64,000 nucleotides of DNA from Escherichia coli (lineage in GTDB: Bacteria; Pseudomonadota; Gammaproteobacteria; Enterobacterales; Enterobacteriaceae): the NCBI RefSeq assembly GCF_003790525.1, contig NZ_CP033635.1; one strand, given 5' to 3'. Below, one piece after another: positions 2,471 through 42,738 of the stretch (its first letter is position 1; every line of letters starts with the position of its first letter). The notes below the pieces were generated by a model. That model saw nothing but the letters and a program-made list of their open reading frames with translations. It was not told the DNA's origin and ran no database searches. A program made the translations under genes and the position numbers.

Positions 2471-2897
2471 AAGAACTCCTTGATATTATCTGTCAGATAT
2501 ACATCACAGGTAGATATCTTTCTTAAATCTACTCATGTAGATATTGTGTTTTATTACATATAAATAAATCTACTCGCGTAGACAAACCAGTCAATGGAAG
2601 TAAAATCGTGATAGAGATCACCCATAAGGTGTAAGCGCAAAGCTGGCGTTGTCTGTATCCCCGCTCCTGCCGGGCTAATTTACGCTTAAAACATCAGCAA
2701 TACACCAGCGTATTCAGTAGCGACAAGCATGAGTCACACTCAAACTCCCGACCATCACCATCCTTGAAAGGTTACAGATCCTGATATACCTGTGTTTATA
2801 ATTACCCTACTGTATTTTCATCATGAAACTGAATCGCTACACAGAGCTGTTTATCTGCAGAGTACAGGCTGGATATGGTTTATTATTACCGTAAGGT

Positions 2898-4311
2898 GTC
2901 AACGACGGATGAAAAGTGGCTCTTCCGCAACCTGGGTGGAAGAAAATGGATGAAACTTTCTGGTGAATAAAGATCTAAGCTGTTTTAAGTTATGGGCAAC
3001 GCAATGCACTCTCTTAAGACACTTCTACAGTTACCTTGCGGATGGAGATGCAGTCGACAAATTATTAGCTCTGACGGTATAACCCTCCATCTCCACGGAA
3101 AACGCAAAACAGCACAAGTCCTGAATGCTTTAAGCGTAGCGACTCTGTTCATAGTTATCGTCGGCGCCGGATACAGCATCTACCCTGCTTAGGGCAGACG
3201 CTATGGCTTGTATTTTCCGTCCGCCACTGGTACTGCCGTAACCCGGCTTGTTCACGTAAAATTTTTGCCGGGTCGCTTGCCCCCTTCGCCGGTTCACTCC
3301 CAGCATTCTTCACAGGTGTTACAAAATTTACAACATCAACTGGGATTAATAGCCGGAGGTGAGGCCGGGAAACAGGCAGCAACGGCAGTGGGGCTCCGTT
3401 GCAGTGCTGATACTCTTCTTCGCAGGGTTATTAATACCCCGGAGACGAAACAGTCAGGCGCGCCTCATGTCGGTATTGATGAGTGGGCGTGGCATCGGGG
3501 CTACCATTACGGTACGTTAATCGTCAATCTTTATACTCACCGTCCCCTCGTCCTGCTTCCCGGTTGCGATCAGAGTACGCTGGCGACCTGGTTCAGAAAA
3601 TATCCGGAAATACAGGTTGTCTCACGTGACCGTGGCGGAGTCTATGCGACAGCAGCACGTGAAGGTGCACCTCAGGCCAGACAGATAGCTGATCGATGGC
3701 ACCTGCTAAAAAATATTGGCGATGCGCCTGAACGAATGATGTACAGACAGATGCCTCTGATACGTCTTGTTGCCAGTGGGTTGTCACCAAAGAAATCACC
3801 TGAGCCAGAACTGTCTGTGCCTGTAGCATCGCTCCGTCGTCCGGAACGCCTTAAACAGCAAACCCGCCAAAAATGGCATCAGCGTTGGACAGAGGTTATG
3901 GCACTACATAACAAGGGATGTGGGTTCAGGGAAATATCCCGTATTACAGACTTATCACGTGTGACAGACAGTCTCTGGGTGTGTTCAGGAACATTCCCTG
4001 AAATGTCAACCCGGCCTCCAGAGCGAGGACTTATGGACCCATGGAAGGAGTGGTTAAAAGAGCAACGAGAAAGTGGTAACTTCGGCGCGTGGCTGCGAGG
4101 ATGGAAGCTGATGCTGCGGCTATATGTGAGGCAATCAGCAGTCGCTGGAATAATGGGGGGTGTCGAAAGTCATGTAAATCGGCTAAAAATGCTGAAAGGC
4201 CAGATGTATGGTCGAGCCGGATTTGAACTACTCAGGCAGAGGGTCATGAGTCCACTGGCATGAAAATCTCCATCCAGGTTGCGGAAGAGCCACTTTTCAT
4301 CCGTCGTTGAC
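2898..4311 (+). mobile_element. Insertion sequence (ISL3-family-like), about 1.41 kb, with perfect 38-bp terminal inverted repeats
   Basis: gtcaacgacggatgaaaagtggctcttccgcaacctgg at 2898..2935 is exactly reverse-complemented at 4274..4311. A transposase-like reading frame fills the interior. Confidence 0.6.
2992..4263 (+). pseudogene. IS transposase interrupted by an in-frame TAG stop at 3190..3192
   Basis: Track ORFs 2992..3192 and 3208..4263 are in the same frame, separated only by an amber codon. The C-terminal part has DDE-type transposase character (DEWAWHRGYHYGTL... DRWHLLKN). Combined length of about 423 codons fits ISL3-family transposases. Confidence 0.5.
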
Positions 4312-5098
4312 AGCTTGGGGGGTAGTGCATCGGTACCTCTAGGTCAAAGGAGGTATTCATATCCATATTAACGACTTGAATATGTTGACAGTACTGATTC
4401 AGATTAACGAAAAACGACCGAGCTTCTCTACTACGCACCTCACCTATCCAGAGGATTGATGAGTATCCGCATCGGCTACGACGGTGCGTAACGATGAGCT
4501 TTGAACAGGGCAAACTCTTTCATGACCCGGCCTTGGCAGTACATCAATCAGACCCTGTGACCTCTATTTGCAACTGACGTTTGTCGATAGTATTGATGAT
4601 ATGCTAGTGCAGGGTAAGAAATTACGAAATATGTTTAATCGGCAAGATTTTGAGTAACGCCTCAACATGCTCAATGAGTCATGTGGTCTGATGAGCATAA
4701 GGCTTTAGCCAGCTGATATAATCCCGAACTATGCCGTAGTTAGGGCAAAGAATGCGGTAGACGGGTAGGCGTAACTGAACTGGAAATACCAGTATTGTTC
4801 ATTACGATAAGGTGCGAAGTAAAGCATCGTGAACGGCTTTAGCCTGTTTGCCACAAGAATAATGACCGTTTTCAATCGGTTTTAGGTGGATGATGAGGGG
4901 GATTTTACTCAGTAGGGACGACGTCAAAGCCTATCCAGAGATAAATGGAAAAGATAGTATTCGAAATTGAGAACGGTTGGGGTTGGTTATCGTTCTGTTT
5001 TAGCAACTAAACAATAACTCCCCAACCGTTATCATTTCCAGCACACGATAATCTGCAATGAACATTAAAAATTCACGGCGGCGGTCGCTTTCCTTAAT

Positions 5099-6061
5099 TT
5101 ACGTCTCCTCTTGGGAGTGGATAATATGGGTGCCTGTTTCGCCACGCAGTGCCGCGGACAGGCATTCAGGCGTGGTGATAATCACTCTTTTACCTCCACG
5201 TTCCAGGAACTCCAGACTGGCAAGAATCTTCGGTAACATACTCCCAGGCGGGAAGTGACCCTCCTGCATGTAACGGGCCATCGTTAGGACATCCACTGTA
5301 TCCAGTGCATGCTGGTTGGGTTTCCCAAAATGAATACTCACTTTTTCCACGCCGGTGGTGATCACCAGAATGTCGGCGTGAATTTCGCGAGCCAGTAGCG
5401 CGCTAGAGAGATCTTTGTCGATAACCGCGTCCACGCTTTGGTAATCCCCTGCGTCAGTACGCACCACCGGAATGCCACCGCCGCCCGCGCCAATCACCAC
5501 AAAGCCTTGCTGGATCAGAGTCTTAATGGCAGGTGCTTCGACAATACGTTTCGGTTCCGGCGAGGCGACCACGCGGCGATAGCCCCGTCCGGCATCTTCA
5601 ACAAAACGCCAGTCAGGGTTTGCCTTTTGTAGTTCATCACGCTGGTTTTCACTAAAGAATGCACCGATGGGCTTGGTGGGATGGACAAACCCCGGATCGT
5701 TTTTATCCACTTCCACCTGAGTCACCACGGTGACGGCTTTTTTCTCGCCGTGAGGCGCCAGCCGGTTGTTCAGCGCCTGCTGGATCAGATAGCCAATGCC
5801 GCCTTGCGTATCCGCCACACAGTTCGCCAGCGGCGTTAAGGGTAGCCCTTCGCGCTCGTGGGCTATCTCCGCGCGGCGTAAATCCAGACCGACCTGCGGC
5901 CCGTTGCCGTGGGTCAGCACAATGTCGTAATCGGAAGCCAGCATTTCCAGAACCGTATCGGCGACGGCCTTCACCGCCTCCGCCTGATGCTCAATCGACT
6001 GGCTGGCGTTATCTTTGATAATGCTGTTGCCACCAATGGCAACGACCACAAGTTCTTTCAT
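5099..6061 (-). CDS. Carbamate kinase (ArcC/YahI-like)
   Basis: 320 aa beginning MKELVVVAIGGNSI, with DIVLTHGNGPQVG and a GGGGIPV motif characteristic of the carbamate kinase / amino acid kinase fold. Last gene of the minus-strand operon. Confidence 0.8.
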   Translation of the reverse strand: MKELVVVAIGGNSIIKDNASQSIEHQAEAVKAVADTVLEMLASDYDIVLTHGNGPQVGLDLRRAEIAHEREGLPLTPLANCVADTQGGIGYLIQQALNNRLAPHGEKKAVTVVTQVEVDKNDPGFVHPTKPIGAFFSENQRDELQKANPDWRFVEDAGRGYRRVVASPEPKRIVEAPAIKTLIQQGFVVIGAGGGGIPVVRTDAGDYQSVDAVIDKDLSSALLAREIHADILVITTGVEKVSIHFGKPNQHALDTVDVLTMARYMQEGHFPPGSMLPKILASLEFLERGGKRVIITTPECLSAALRGETGTHIIHSQEET

Positions 6062-6087
6062 AGAATTATCTTCCGTTTGCAGGCTAT

Positions 6088-7638
6088 TCAGGTCGTTTTA
6101 GTCTCTTCCTGCTCAGACGCAGCCACTGTTTCACGGCTATCAATAACATGCTTGAGGGCAAACATAGCAAGCATCATCAGGTAGGCCACAACAAACACAA
6201 TCGAGCTGCCTTCCGCAAAGCCAACCGCTGGGGAGTGAATCACGCCAAACAGCGATAACAGTGCTCCAAAGGATGCAGCTATCGCCCCGCGCAGCGGCTT
6301 ATTCATAATGGCAAAGATCGCAATGCATCCCCACAGCATGCTGGCCAGCGGTGCACCGCTTCCCAGATGCATCAGTCCATCGTAATAGACGCCTTTGCTG
6401 TGCAACAGGTCGCTACCAAGTTTCTCAGCGGATGTTCCGGCTGCGCCCATCACGCTGTTAACGATGGTCAATGCCCAGTTGGCGACCCATGGGAACAGAC
6501 AGATGAAAATAACGGGAACCTCGACTTTAGGAGTTTCTCGCACCACCTGATTGGCGGTTACCACACCGATAAAAACCAGAATTGGCACTATAGCAGTCAT
6601 GGGAATAATGGCGAGCATAAACGCGCCCAACCCAAACAATGGCACCAGGAACATAGTGATGCCTGATGCGAGGGTATAGCAGATACTAGCGCCCATAGCT
6701 TTCCAGCCTGCATGCCCAACATATACGGTTACCGGGAACGGATTACCCAGCATGCAACCGAGCATGGAGGCAAAGCCGTTCGCCATCATGACCTTACGGG
6801 TGTTGTATTCATCACCAGCCGCGTGCGCACTTTCAATGTTCTCGAGGTCAAAAATGTAGTTAGCCAGGCCCAAAGGAACTGCAGAAGCCAGATATGGCAG
6901 AGCGTGCGGCAAACCTTGCAGGAAGCTCCTTACATGAATTTCCGGCGGGTTGAAGCCGAAGGAAGACATCGACGCTTTAATGTCTTCCGGGCTTTGTAAA
7001 CCGGATATCCACGCTAGGGACGTACCAGCAATCAGCAACAGCAAACCGGTAGGAATATGGGGAAAAATCGGCTTCTTACCGAACCAGTTAATGAAGATCA
7101 ATAACAGGACGATGAAAGAAACTGTCGGCGCTTCGAACGCTTGCAGCATCGGGTTCATTGCCAGCAGTAATAACCCCAGTCCGGACAGACAAGAAAGCAG
7201 CACTGTACGCGGGATCATCTTGCGGATAGTCTCACCCAGGAAGGAGCCACCGACCAGGATCAACGCTTCGACAAAGCACCACACCAATCCTATCTGAATA
7301 GCAAAGTTGGCATCTTTGGTTTGCTGATAAACCGGCATCAGCACCAGGAATGTCACGGTAAAGATTGAGGGTGCGCTCGGTCCAGACGGCAGCGCCGTTA
7401 CATCGCTACGACCGGTTTTCTTCACCATCTGTAGACCAAACCAGGAGTAGCAGACACTGGCCGCCAGCACTGCAAGACCAAAGGCAGGCGCAATGCGTCC
7501 ATAGACAATTTCAGTAGGGATTCCGACGACAAAAATTAGCAGACCCATCATTGTCAGCAGGTTAGTCAGATTGTTGGTCATCAGTCCAAAGTAAGCCGCC
7601 CAGTCACCACGTTTCCATTCTAGTTTTATGCTGTTCAT
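6088..7638 (-). CDS. Polytopic membrane permease (possibly NCS2/AzgA-like nucleobase-type transporter)
   Basis: 516 aa, highly hydrophobic with many predicted TM segments, embedded between the DUF1116 and carbamate kinase genes. Family assignment is tentative. Confidence 0.45.
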   Translation of the reverse strand: MNSIKLEWKRGDWAAYFGLMTNNLTNLLTMMGLLIFVVGIPTEIVYGRIAPAFGLAVLAASVCYSWFGLQMVKKTGRSDVTALPSGPSAPSIFTVTFLVLMPVYQQTKDANFAIQIGLVWCFVEALILVGGSFLGETIRKMIPRTVLLSCLSGLGLLLLAMNPMLQAFEAPTVSFIVLLLIFINWFGKKPIFPHIPTGLLLLIAGTSLAWISGLQSPEDIKASMSSFGFNPPEIHVRSFLQGLPHALPYLASAVPLGLANYIFDLENIESAHAAGDEYNTRKVMMANGFASMLGCMLGNPFPVTVYVGHAGWKAMGASICYTLASGITMFLVPLFGLGAFMLAIIPMTAIVPILVFIGVVTANQVVRETPKVEVPVIFICLFPWVANWALTIVNSVMGAAGTSAEKLGSDLLHSKGVYYDGLMHLGSGAPLASMLWGCIAIFAIMNKPLRGAIAASFGALLSLFGVIHSPAVGFAEGSSIVFVVAYLMMLAMFALKHVIDSRETVAASEQEETKTT

Positions 7639-40623: not shown

Positions 40624-40631
40624 CCGATGAA

Positions 40632-40659
40632 GCGGCGGTATTCTCACCGCCGCCTTTTA
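40632..40659 (+). terminator. Hairpin terminator between convergent gltS and recG
   Basis: Stem gcggcggt / accgccgc with a short loop, followed by a T-run. Confidence 0.5.
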
Positions 40660-42738
40660 CGCATTCGAGTAACGTTCCGTCTCCGGCATCCAGCGTTCTA
40701 TCAGGGCTTTTGCCTGTTGTGGGTAACGTTCGTGAATATGTCGCGCCAGGCGCTGAACTTCCGGGATCATCGCCTGATCGCGCAGTAAATCCGCCACTTT
40801 AAATTCAGCATTACCCGTCTGACGCGTACCTAACAGTTCACCCGGTCCGCGAATCTCTAAGTCTTTCTGTGCAATCACAAAACCGTCGTTGCTGTCGCGC
40901 AGCACTTGCAGCCGAATTTGCGCGGTTTTGGAGAGCGGCGTTTTGTAGAGCAGCACGCAGTGAGAAGCCACCGCACCACGACCTACACGCCCGCGAAGCT
41001 GGTGTAACTGCGCCAGACCCAGACGCTCCGGGTTTTCGATAATCATCAGACTGGCGTTAGGCACATCAACACCGACTTCAATAACGGTAGTGGCAACCAG
41101 CAGGTGTAGTTCACCTTGTTTAAACGACGCCATCACCGCCTGTTTATCGGCAGGTTTCATCCGCCCGTGTACCAGGCCGACGTTCAGTTCCGGCAACGCC
41201 AGTTTCAACTCTTCCCAGGTTGCTTCCGCCGCCTGCGCTTCCAGCAATTCCGACTCTTCAATCAACGTACAAACCCAGTATGCCTGACGACCTTCAGTTA
41301 TGCAGGCGTGGCGCACGCGGTCAATAATGTCGGTACGGCGGGTATCAGGAATAGCGACCGTAGTCACTGGCGTGCGTCCTGGCGGCAGCTCATCTATCAC
41401 CGAGGTATCGAGATCGGCATACGCAGTCATCGCCAGCGTGCGGGGGATGGGCGTGGCGGTCATGATCAACTGATGCGGATGGAAGCCCTGCTGCTGGCCT
41501 TTCTCCCATAACGCCAGACGCTGATGCACGCCAAAACGATGCTGTTCGTCGATAATCACCAGCGCCAGACCGTTAAACTGCACCTGTTCCTGGAAGATGG
41601 CGTGTGTTCCGACAATCATCTGCACCTGACCGCTGGCGATGGCTTCCTGCTGTGCCAGCCGCGCTTTACCTTTCTGCTTACCGGCGAGCCAGCCCACTTC
41701 GATACCGAGCGGTGCAAACCAGTTACGGAAGTTATTGGCGTGCTGTTCGGCGAGTAATTCGGTTGGTGCCATCAATGCCACCTGTTTGCCGTGGGCAATC
41801 GCACGCAGCGCGGCGAGGGCGGCGACCAGCGTTTTACCGGAACCTACATCGCCCTGTACCAGGCGCATCATCGGCACATCCAGCGCCATATCGCGCTCGA
41901 TCTCCGCCGCTACGCGTGCCTGTGCGCCCGTTGGCTTGAACGGTAAGGCGGCGAGGAGTTTATTTTTCAGCGCGTCATTGGCGCTCAGTGGCTGGGCATG
42001 AAAACGCTGTGCTCCGGCACGTAAGGCTAACATGCTGAGGTTGTGCGCCAGCAGTTCCTCCAGAATCAGACGGCGTTGTGCCGGATGCTGGCCGGTTTCC
42101 AGATCGCTAAGCTGTAGCGTCGGCGGCGGGCGGTGCAAAGTGCGCAACGCTTCCGGTAGCGTCATCATTCCTTGTGACAGTTCCGGCGGCAGGAGTTCTT
42201 CAATGGCGCAGGTGTCGAGCAGATCAAGCGCCTGGTCGGTTAATTTACGCAGCGTGGCCTGCTTTACGCCTTCGGTTGTTGGATAAACCGGCGTAAGCGT
42301 TTCCTGCAACTCTGGCGTACTGAGATCGCCCTGCACGCGGTATTCCGGGTGGATCATCTCCGCACCATATTTACCGCGCTTTGCTTCTCCATAGGCCAGC
42401 ACGCGGCGGCCCGTCGCCAGGCTATTTTTCATTGCCGCGTTGAAGTTGAAAAAGCGCATGGTGAGAATGCCGGAACCGTCGCTGATCTGGCAGGTCATCA
42501 TCCGCCGACCGCCGAAGGAGATATTGCAGTTCAGCACTTCGCCTTCCACCGTGGCATAAACGCCCGGTAGTAGTTCTCCGATGGGGTAGAGATGGGTGCG
42601 ATCTTCGTAGCGCAGGGGAAGGTGTAAGAGTAGATCCTGCACGGTATGCAGGTTGATTTTCGCCAGCTTGTTACTAAGCGCTGCGCCAACGCCCGTTAGG
42701 GAACTGAGCGGGACAGCATCTAACAGGCGACCTTTCAT
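40657..42738 (-). CDS. recG: ATP-dependent DNA helicase RecG
   Basis: Start chosen at MKGRLLDAVPLSSLTGVGA (693 aa); Walker A GDVGSGKT and helicase motifs present. Confidence 0.9.
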   Translation of the reverse strand: MKGRLLDAVPLSSLTGVGAALSNKLAKINLHTVQDLLLHLPLRYEDRTHLYPIGELLPGVYATVEGEVLNCNISFGGRRMMTCQISDGSGILTMRFFNFNAAMKNSLATGRRVLAYGEAKRGKYGAEMIHPEYRVQGDLSTPELQETLTPVYPTTEGVKQATLRKLTDQALDLLDTCAIEELLPPELSQGMMTLPEALRTLHRPPPTLQLSDLETGQHPAQRRLILEELLAHNLSMLALRAGAQRFHAQPLSANDALKNKLLAALPFKPTGAQARVAAEIERDMALDVPMMRLVQGDVGSGKTLVAALAALRAIAHGKQVALMAPTELLAEQHANNFRNWFAPLGIEVGWLAGKQKGKARLAQQEAIASGQVQMIVGTHAIFQEQVQFNGLALVIIDEQHRFGVHQRLALWEKGQQQGFHPHQLIMTATPIPRTLAMTAYADLDTSVIDELPPGRTPVTTVAIPDTRRTDIIDRVRHACITEGRQAYWVCTLIEESELLEAQAAEATWEELKLALPELNVGLVHGRMKPADKQAVMASFKQGELHLLVATTVIEVGVDVPNASLMIIENPERLGLAQLHQLRGRVGRGAVASHCVLLYKTPLSKTAQIRLQVLRDSNDGFVIAQKDLEIRGPGELLGTRQTGNAEFKVADLLRDQAMIPEVQRLARHIHERYPQQAKALIERWMPETERYSNA

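Follow-up and report, generated by a model that had tools for sequence, protein, structure and literature searches.

The gap behind the carbamate kinase gene of an Escherichia coli yah-like island: probable debris of an ISL3-family element whose leader hairpin is conserved in its relatives

We analysed the 790-bp "intergenic" region that lies between an insertion sequence (IS) and the carbamate kinase gene of a yah-like island in a 64-kb stretch of Escherichia coli chromosome (hereafter the window), and concluded that this gap is very probably mobile-element debris and not a regulatory region. Homology to an intact IS identifies the bulk of the gap as a decayed fragment (the 5′ ~58%) of a second element of the ISL3 family, and the remainder consists of a few terminal bases of the neighbouring IS on the left and the stub of a yahJ-like gene on the right. 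The inverted repeat that a sequence-only reading of the region had picked out belongs to a long hairpin in the leader of this element, and the hairpin is a conserved, covarying feature of an ISL3 sublineage. The identities of the segments (Table 1) were observed directly, as was the fact that the hairpin is conserved and covaries. The proper annotation of the region is an ISL3 transposase pseudogene followed by a yahJ stub, and for this reason the island has no amidohydrolase gene; nested IS debris accounts for the missing gene in the yah-like island of ColV/IncF virulence plasmids and of some chromosomes.

Table 1. Features in and around the gap (positions are those of the window).
Feature	Position	Strand	Basis
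Neighbouring ISL3-family element; its transposase gene (2992-4263) is a frameshifted pseudogene	2893..4316	+	RefSeq annotation of an identical record and plasmid homologues
Decayed ISL3-family element, 5′ fragment (~750 of ~1300 bp)	4313..5064	−	blastn to the IS of Shewanella putrefaciens pSA70-3
Transposase pseudogene of the decayed element (residues 1-220 of ~397)	4313..4967	−	tblastn with the Shewanella transposase
Leader hairpin of the decayed element (~75 nt, irregular)	4963..5038	−	Folding; position and covariation in 47 leaders
Left terminal inverted repeat (IRL) of the decayed element, TGTTCATTGCAGATTATCGTGTGCT (family consensus GGTTCATCGCGGATTAGCGGGAA)	5040..5064	−	Alignment with 41 relatives; Shewanella 25-nt repeats
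yahJ-like stub: the first 11 codons (IKESDRRREFL) of an amidohydrolase gene	5065..5098	−	tblastn, DNA alignment, native loci
Carbamate kinase gene (yahI-like, 320 aa)	5099..6061	−	93% identical to K-12 YahI
yah-like island (LysR regulator, ankyrin protein, DUF2877/AllH-like, FdrA, DUF1116/YlbE-like, 516-aa permease, carbamate kinase)	right of the gap	−	

The one informative match from outside E. coli in a distant-mode plasmid search was an IS on the S. putrefaciens plasmid pSA70-3 (CP078040.1), and positions 4313-5066 of the window aligned in blastn with the first 764 bp of this intact element at 82% identity. The Shewanella IS is ~1296-1298 bp long and carries 25-nt terminal inverted repeats and a 397-aa transposase, which belongs to the ISL3 family (PF01610, E 2e-69; PF13542; NF033550, 327 bits with a cut-off of 180). 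The sequence-only reading had seen no convincing open reading frame (ORF) in the gap, and this was upheld, as no intact ORF is present and the four listed ORFs of 41-89 aa are frames of the decayed transposase gene. The same reading had named a lack of residual protein similarity among the findings that would count against it. We found strong residual similarity, but to a transposase: the Shewanella protein aligned to the gap in tblastn over aa 26-220 (E 2e-75, 63% identity) and, in another frame, over aa 1-22. At least seven stop codons and several frameshifts interrupt the aligned frames, the start codon has changed from ATG to ATT (4965-4967), and the translation of the decayed gene gave sub-threshold Pfam matches to HTH_Tnp_ISL3 and DDE_Tnp_ISL3 (18 bits each). 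A complete element would have ~1.2-1.5 kb with one intact transposase ORF, and this ~750-bp fragment is clearly not one. On plasmid copies the equivalent of 4319-4526 on the minus strand bears the PGAP label "transposase, frameshifted, incomplete", which is not given on this chromosome.

The left terminal repeat of the decayed element aligns with the left repeats of its relatives, whereas the right end has been deleted, and no further piece of the element was found elsewhere in the window. We found no intact copy of the window's own variant; the nearest intact relative is the Shewanella IS, and at this level of nucleotide identity the two would count as different ISs. By analogy, the original element may be reconstructed from this relative. 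The window copy shares with the Shewanella IS, and with the ISL3 family, the transposase homology, the left repeat (GGTTCATCGC...), insertion at an AT-rich 8-mer and the leader architecture; it differs from the Shewanella IS in that the start codon, the reading frame, the catalytic domain and the right end are all lost. ISAeme19 is a more distant named relative.

The carbamate kinase gene, whose stop codon lies at 5099-5101, is the last intact gene of the island. The gene order in K-12 is the same, except that a small yahH stands in place of the permease gene, and the K-12 cluster ends with yahJ, 9 nt after yahI. The sequence-only reading had placed the gap at the position of yahJ, and by the K-12 gene order this synteny is sound. 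It had further suggested that the gap might hold the remnant of a lost gene, which was correct in that a yahJ-like stub exists; however, the stub has only 34 nt, and the other ~750 bp show no similarity to YahJ. In tblastn, K-12 YahJ matched the gap by its aa 1-11 alone (5098-5066, on the operon strand), which rules out a yahJ remnant spanning the whole gap; the remaining matches beyond the stub were at chance level (E > 0.3), and neither another trace of yahJ nor an amidohydrolase domain was found within the 64-kb window. The stub is identical to the K-12 sequence MKESNSRREFL at 8/11 residues, contains the twin-arginine signal motif and has a start codon ATT in place of ATG, and its DNA can be aligned to the K-12 yahI-yahJ junction. 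It thus resembles K-12 yahJ (b0324, amidohydrolase family protein) in the first 11 codons, in the Tat-type SRREFL motif and in its place directly after the carbamate kinase gene; of such a gene only 34 nt survive here.

We then compared window positions 5065-7000 with 5426 E. coli genomes. In thousands of native yahI-yahJ loci the alignment reached into the annotated yahJ gene, to window positions 5067-5069, and ended at the IS junction. Because the native loci align into yahJ and then stop at this junction, we place the insertion of the decayed element at codon 12 of the yahJ-like gene. The junction with the stub is marked by an AT-rich 8-mer, ATTTTTAA (5065-5072). Exact 8-bp AT-rich target duplications were found in 13/20 copies of the relatives of this element, of which the window retains one junction, so that insertion at this 8-mer fits the target preference of the relatives.

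The truncation of the decayed element coincides with the right end of the neighbouring element. The terminal inverted repeats of the latter are 48 nt long (2893-2940 and 4269-4316) and 96% complementary, and the limit between the two elements is ambiguous by 4 nt (4313-4317), as GCTT is common to both. The gap had been taken to start at 4312, a position that falls within the right copy of this 48-nt repeat. No 8-bp target duplication surrounds the neighbouring element; the two flanking 8-bp sequences, read directly, differ from each other. A history of the locus can be proposed as follows. An ISL3-family element, with its nearest intact relative on a Shewanella plasmid, would have hit a yah-like island ending in a yahJ-like gene, entering at the AT-rich 8-mer in codon 12 and in the same orientation as the operon. 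The neighbouring element would then have landed in, or recombined at, codon ~220 of the transposase gene, and everything beyond that codon would have been deleted, namely the rest of the decayed element, the rest of the yahJ-like gene and whatever came after it, either through an adjacent deletion or through recombination between copies of the neighbouring element. The leftover fragment would have decayed afterwards. We infer the order of the two insertions and the deletion solely from the missing target duplication.

The debris is found in every copy of this island variant whose surroundings were inspected. The window matches the TUM9803 chromosome of E. coli at 100% identity, and many ColV/IncF plasmids carry the block at 99.5% identity, always with IS debris. 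The hosts of these plasmids are avian and extra-intestinal pathogenic E. coli, and the block also occurs in some other chromosomes. Among the 5426 E. coli genomes, the permease-containing variant of the island was present in 141; the gap sequence was detected in 142, of which 121 had at least 80% of it. No IS-free copy of the variant was found among these genomes, and IS debris was present in every island copy whose context was inspected.

The sequence-only reading had described an 11-bp inverted repeat that could form a stem-loop just downstream of the carbamate kinase stop codon. The repeat is real and perfect (aacggttgggg, 4972-4982; ccccaaccgtt, 5020-5030), although its left arm had been placed 2 nt off, and with mismatches allowed it extends to 18-nt arms (4965-4982 and 5020-5037, 89% complementary). 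The stem-loop was confirmed as well, but its actual distance is 61-136 nt past the stop. The hairpin contains the 11-bp repeat in its outer stem, where 5020-5030 pair with 4972-4982, and has an inner stem of ~10 bp. It follows the left terminal repeat and precedes the former start codon of the decayed transposase gene, with its 3′ arm ending 4 nt before the codon. Folded on the minus strand in a context of 151 nt, it reached -48.4 kcal/mol (z = -5.2), and 0/200 shuffles were as stable; the window leader alone reached -35 kcal/mol. The apical loop, AGUUGCU (UUGCUAAAA), has diverged by mutation from AGUCGCC, the motif of the family. We also noticed a promoter-like site on the plus (antisense) strand at 5008-5035, which is not conserved.

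In the window itself the hairpin is most likely a fossil and probably functionless, because the start codon and the reading frame that it preceded have been lost. At most, transcripts of the carbamate kinase gene could carry it in their 3′ untranslated tail as a stable fold that is there by accident. Its suggested role as a terminator or an sRNA is not supported: the hairpin arrived with the IS, recurs in the leaders of 46 relatives, has no U-tract and matches nothing in Rfam. We regard it as very unlikely that the carbamate kinase operon has since co-opted the hairpin to terminate its transcripts or to stabilise their 3′ ends. Such a use would suit its place on the operon strand shortly past the stop, its high stability and the removal, by the IS insertion, of any native signal that lay after yahJ. 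However, the stem is followed by AAUUUCGAAUAC instead of a U-tract, a terminator scan of 4200-5300 gave nothing on the minus strand, Rfam 15 gave no match at E <= 1 in window 4200-5200, and relatives have the same structure in unrelated contexts, whatever the flanking genes.

We further studied the leader in relatives of the decayed element. A scan of one genome per species yielded 80 loci with 55-99% aa identity to the Shewanella transposase. Most belong to Gammaproteobacteria of marine and other environmental origin; Enterobacterales, Lentisphaera and various metagenome-assembled genomes (MAGs) contributed a few. The 80 loci gave, together with the window copy, 47 distinct leaders (46 from relatives), all of which have the same layout of left repeat, short purine-rich spacer, long hairpin and start codon. 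Each of the 47 folded singly into the long hairpin, with the 3′ base of the stem -3 to +5 nt from the start codon, so that in every leader the conserved structure includes or abuts the translation initiation region. The z score was below -2 in 41/47. The stem sequences vary between leaders (AACGGUUGG/CCAACCGUU, AACGGCUGG/CCAGCCGUU, GACGGCGGU/ACCGCCGUC and AAGUCGUUCUC/GAGAACGACUU), while the apical loop TCGCCAAA is nearly invariant, with the motif UCGCCAAA(A/C).

In a plain MAFFT alignment, the 11 outer pairs of the stem were 78.8% paired, versus 31-57% when the arms were slid by 1-3 columns (~33% at offsets 1-2). Double changes occurred in 10/11 of these pairs, with 81 compensatory cells in total, and 0/500 shuffles reached such values. 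The outer pairs were 82-100% paired, with GC/AT swaps, in a covariance-model alignment, and a covariance model built from one subgroup detected the leader in most of the other loci; as that alignment is fitted to the structure and is imperfect for distant groups, we put the main weight on the plain-MAFFT pair counts. RNAalifold returned no structure from a 42-sequence MAFFT alignment, because the inner stems do not line up in it. Rfam 15 gave no match to the leaders of 8 intact relatives. A weak antisense match to asX2 (RF02236) in one leader (L012) was rejected, since the alignment was carried by a host terminator beside the IS, and the source paper of asX2 makes no link to transposases.

These data leave almost no probability that the repeat in the window arose by chance in junk DNA. 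Inverted repeats of small size occur often, and 10 other weak pairs lie in the same kilobase; but only 2/300 mononucleotide shuffles of 4312-5098 produced a perfect 11-bp repeat of this kind (loop length 3-80 nt), and the presence of the same hairpin, with compensatory changes, in all leaders of relatives examined refutes a chance origin.

We next considered what the hairpin does in living copies. No SD-like (Shine-Dalgarno-like) match was present in the -18 to -3 zone of 43/47 leaders. The best SD-like tract in most leaders is instead 55-96 nt upstream, where it either directly precedes the hairpin or belongs to the inner end of the terminal repeat. Several leaders, among them those of the window copy and the Shewanella IS, have their best tract within the hairpin. 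In the Vibrio and enterobacterial lineages, only a weak tract or none at all is seen at the hairpin foot. Most likely, by analogy with IS200, IS10 and ISPpu9, the hairpin controls the translation of the transposase in living relatives. It fills the whole distance between the only SD-like purine tract and the start codon, and it is predicted to close over both in many copies; an initiation region closed in this way would hold transposase synthesis low and would shield it from transcripts entering from outside. The Marinobacter-type copies illustrate this arrangement, AGGAG-AC-(hairpin)-GUCCCU-AUG, where the minimum free energy (MFE) fold lengthens the stem until it takes in the SD-like tract as well as the AU of the AUG.

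The same arrangement could be read in the opposite sense, with the hairpin activating translation as part of a split ribosome-binding site, in which the fold bridges a distant 5′ Shine-Dalgarno sequence to a start codon 3′ of the stem. Split ribosome-binding sites are known from phage T4 genes 38 and 25. The scarcity of SD-like matches in the normal zone speaks for such a bridge, and many lineages have a strong GGAG/GAGG 1-6 nt 5′ of the stem and an AUG 0-8 nt 3′ of it, giving an effective spacing of 8 nt in the Marinobacter-type arrangement (leader L027). Nevertheless, we consider activation unlikely. In these same copies the MFE fold covers both the SD-like tract and the beginning of the AUG, which would occlude them, and no convincing SD stands at the stem foot in the copies from Vibrio, Shewanella and the enterobacterial lineages.

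Somewhat less improbable than activation, although still unlikely, is that the palindrome does not act as a structure of the transposase mRNA at all, and instead encodes an antisense RNA (like RNA-OUT of IS10 or art200 of IS200), serves as a bidirectional terminator, or is a DNA site for the transposase or a host factor. In 39/47 leaders the antisense strand gives the more stable fold, and it has twice the G-U pairs (13% antisense against 6% sense), and on the sense strand A-C mismatches (62) exceed G-U pairs (32); the strand call from G-U pairs is contradictory and slightly favours antisense. Furthermore, a U-run directly follows the antisense hairpin in Vibrio copies, in leaders L007, L026, L032 and L047 and in enterobacterial copies, one Vibrio leader (L017) has antisense promoter-like sites from which an RNA would start at the tnp start codon, and the apical loop shows the sequence conservation expected of a binding site. 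By contrast, the Marinobacter-type, Pseudomonas-type and Shewanella copies lack both the U-run and the antisense promoter-like sites, and consensus promoter scans in the leaders of four relatives and the window revealed no consistent sigma-70-like site on either strand. The right end has no room for a matching palindrome, since the transposase ORF ends 5 nt from it, and this argues against a symmetric transposase site. Control of transposase translation by the hairpin stays our preferred reading; either strand may be the acting one.

A broader proposal can be put forward tentatively. The ~75-nt hairpin, with its loop UCGCCAAA and the following CAAAACAACAAA tract, might be an undescribed riboregulator of the whole ISL3 sublineage, working either as a split ribosome-binding site that needs the fold or as a sense/antisense pair with a host-factor-binding loop. 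The sublineage would comprise Gammaproteobacteria together with copies in Lentisphaera and in MAGs of Verrucomicrobiota and Rhodopirellula (Planctomycetota), and the hairpin has no entry in Rfam 15 or in the literature searched. Taken as a whole, with regulator and sublineage together, we hold this proposal to be possible but on balance doubtful. The literature searched contained no account of a leader structure in ISL3 elements or of how they control the expression of their transposase. Many marine and clinical Gammaproteobacteria carry an ISL3 sublineage whose leader hairpin covaries, has a conserved loop and comes with no ordinary Shine-Dalgarno sequence. This hairpin offers a concrete, testable element for the control of ISL3 transposase expression, even if the wider point is modest.

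Several known IS leader systems resemble this arrangement. IS200 belongs to an IS family unrelated to ISL3. In the work on IS200 (Ellis, Trussler & Haniford 2015, PMC4513863), a stem-loop in the tnpA 5′UTR acts together with the antisense RNA art200 and Hfq, and it was shown experimentally that the initiation region is closed and translation is low. The ISL3 leader is like that of IS200 in having a stable structure at the translation start of the transposase, a palindrome from which a structured RNA could also arise in antisense, and a possible Hfq-binding site in an A-rich tract. It differs in that no sequence or Rfam similarity was found between the two, the hairpin is ~75 nt long and contains no SD in most copies, and the ISL3 leader is known here from sequence alone.

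IS10 and IS50 silence read-through transcripts by fold-back inhibition, and their defining feature is a resident promoter between the arms, so that the native mRNA lacks the 5′ arm. The ISL3 leader likewise has an inverted repeat near the left end, with the distal arm at the translation start, and would silence transcripts from outside. In the window, the carbamate kinase operon reads straight into the decayed element, which is comparable to the read-through situation in IS10 and IS50. A promoter between the arms, in contrast, was not found by consensus scans in four relatives and the window. For IS10, there is also work on Hfq and RNA-IN (PMC5006887).

ISPpu9 is a different IS, whose tnp 5′UTR folds over the ribosome-binding site. 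According to Gomez-Garcia et al. (2021, PMC8450116), mutations that weaken this fold raise translation, and the control depends on two mapped sRNAs, Asr9 and Ssr9. Like the leader of ISPpu9, the ISL3 leader places a long 5′UTR structure at the initiation region of its transposase.

We found that many relatives of IS#2, the decayed ISL3-family 5′ fragment that fills most of the gap downstream of the carbamate kinase gene, lie directly against a host intrinsic terminator's T-run, and at the left flanks of these copies a G+C hairpin is followed by the T-run and then at once by GGTTC. This placement suggests that terminator T-tracts are preferred as targets. Exact 8-bp AT-rich duplications were observed in 13 of the 20 copies checked. 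The neighbouring ISL3-family element IS#1 carries unusually long terminal inverted repeats (48 nt, 96% complementary) and no 8-bp target duplication flanks it, which implies an IS-mediated deletion or recombination adjoining the element.

To the right of the gap, the yah-like island encodes a 516-aa permease, named 'xanthine permease' or 'hypothetical protein' in RefSeq, at the position that the small yahH occupies in K-12. Of 5426 complete E. coli genomes, only 141 have the permease-type island and 142 the gap sequence, with IS debris in every inspected copy. The gap sequence is again split or truncated in some E. coli plasmids and chromosomes, whose matches cover only query positions 1-434, 423-787 or 468-787, indicating additional IS insertions or deletions within the same debris.

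Locations of the features described
Feature	Location	Strand
IS copies at terminator T-run (left flanks)	L012, L017, L018, L024, L034, L056, L058, L069, L073, L085	
IS#1 terminal inverted repeats	window 2893-2940 and 4269-4316	
516-aa permease	window 6088-7638	minus
Renewed break in gap sequence	window ~4734-4779; records H55-H60, e.g. NZ_CP101275.1, NZ_CP099723.1	
Alloalcanivorax copies with insertion	L040:1346-1515; L061:1-162	
Six-tRNA-gene array, Buttiauxella brennerae	L074:92-657	
Weak covariance-model match	window 40625-40667	minus
Apical loop motif	window 5000-5008; alignment A2 columns ~70-79	minus

In the Alloalcanivorax copies, an insertion of ~50 nt, in which additional hairpins are predicted, separates the left terminal repeat from the conserved leader hairpin that precedes the transposase start codon. 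In Buttiauxella brennerae, a six-tRNA-gene array lies ~740 bp upstream of the IS copy. Elsewhere in the window, the IS-leader covariance model gave a weak match (21 bits) reading GCGGCGGT..ACCGCCGC and then TTTT, which was rejected as a leader hairpin; since it is an ordinary terminator-like hairpin followed by TTTT, the match is a chance resemblance to the G+C-rich outer stem.

The stems of the leader hairpin covary while the apical loop motif, TCGCCAAA(A/C), stays nearly invariant among copies with just 55% identity between their transposases. On the 3′ side of this motif lies an (A-A-N)n-like tract, CAAAACAACAAAC, which is similar to Hfq distal-face binding sites.
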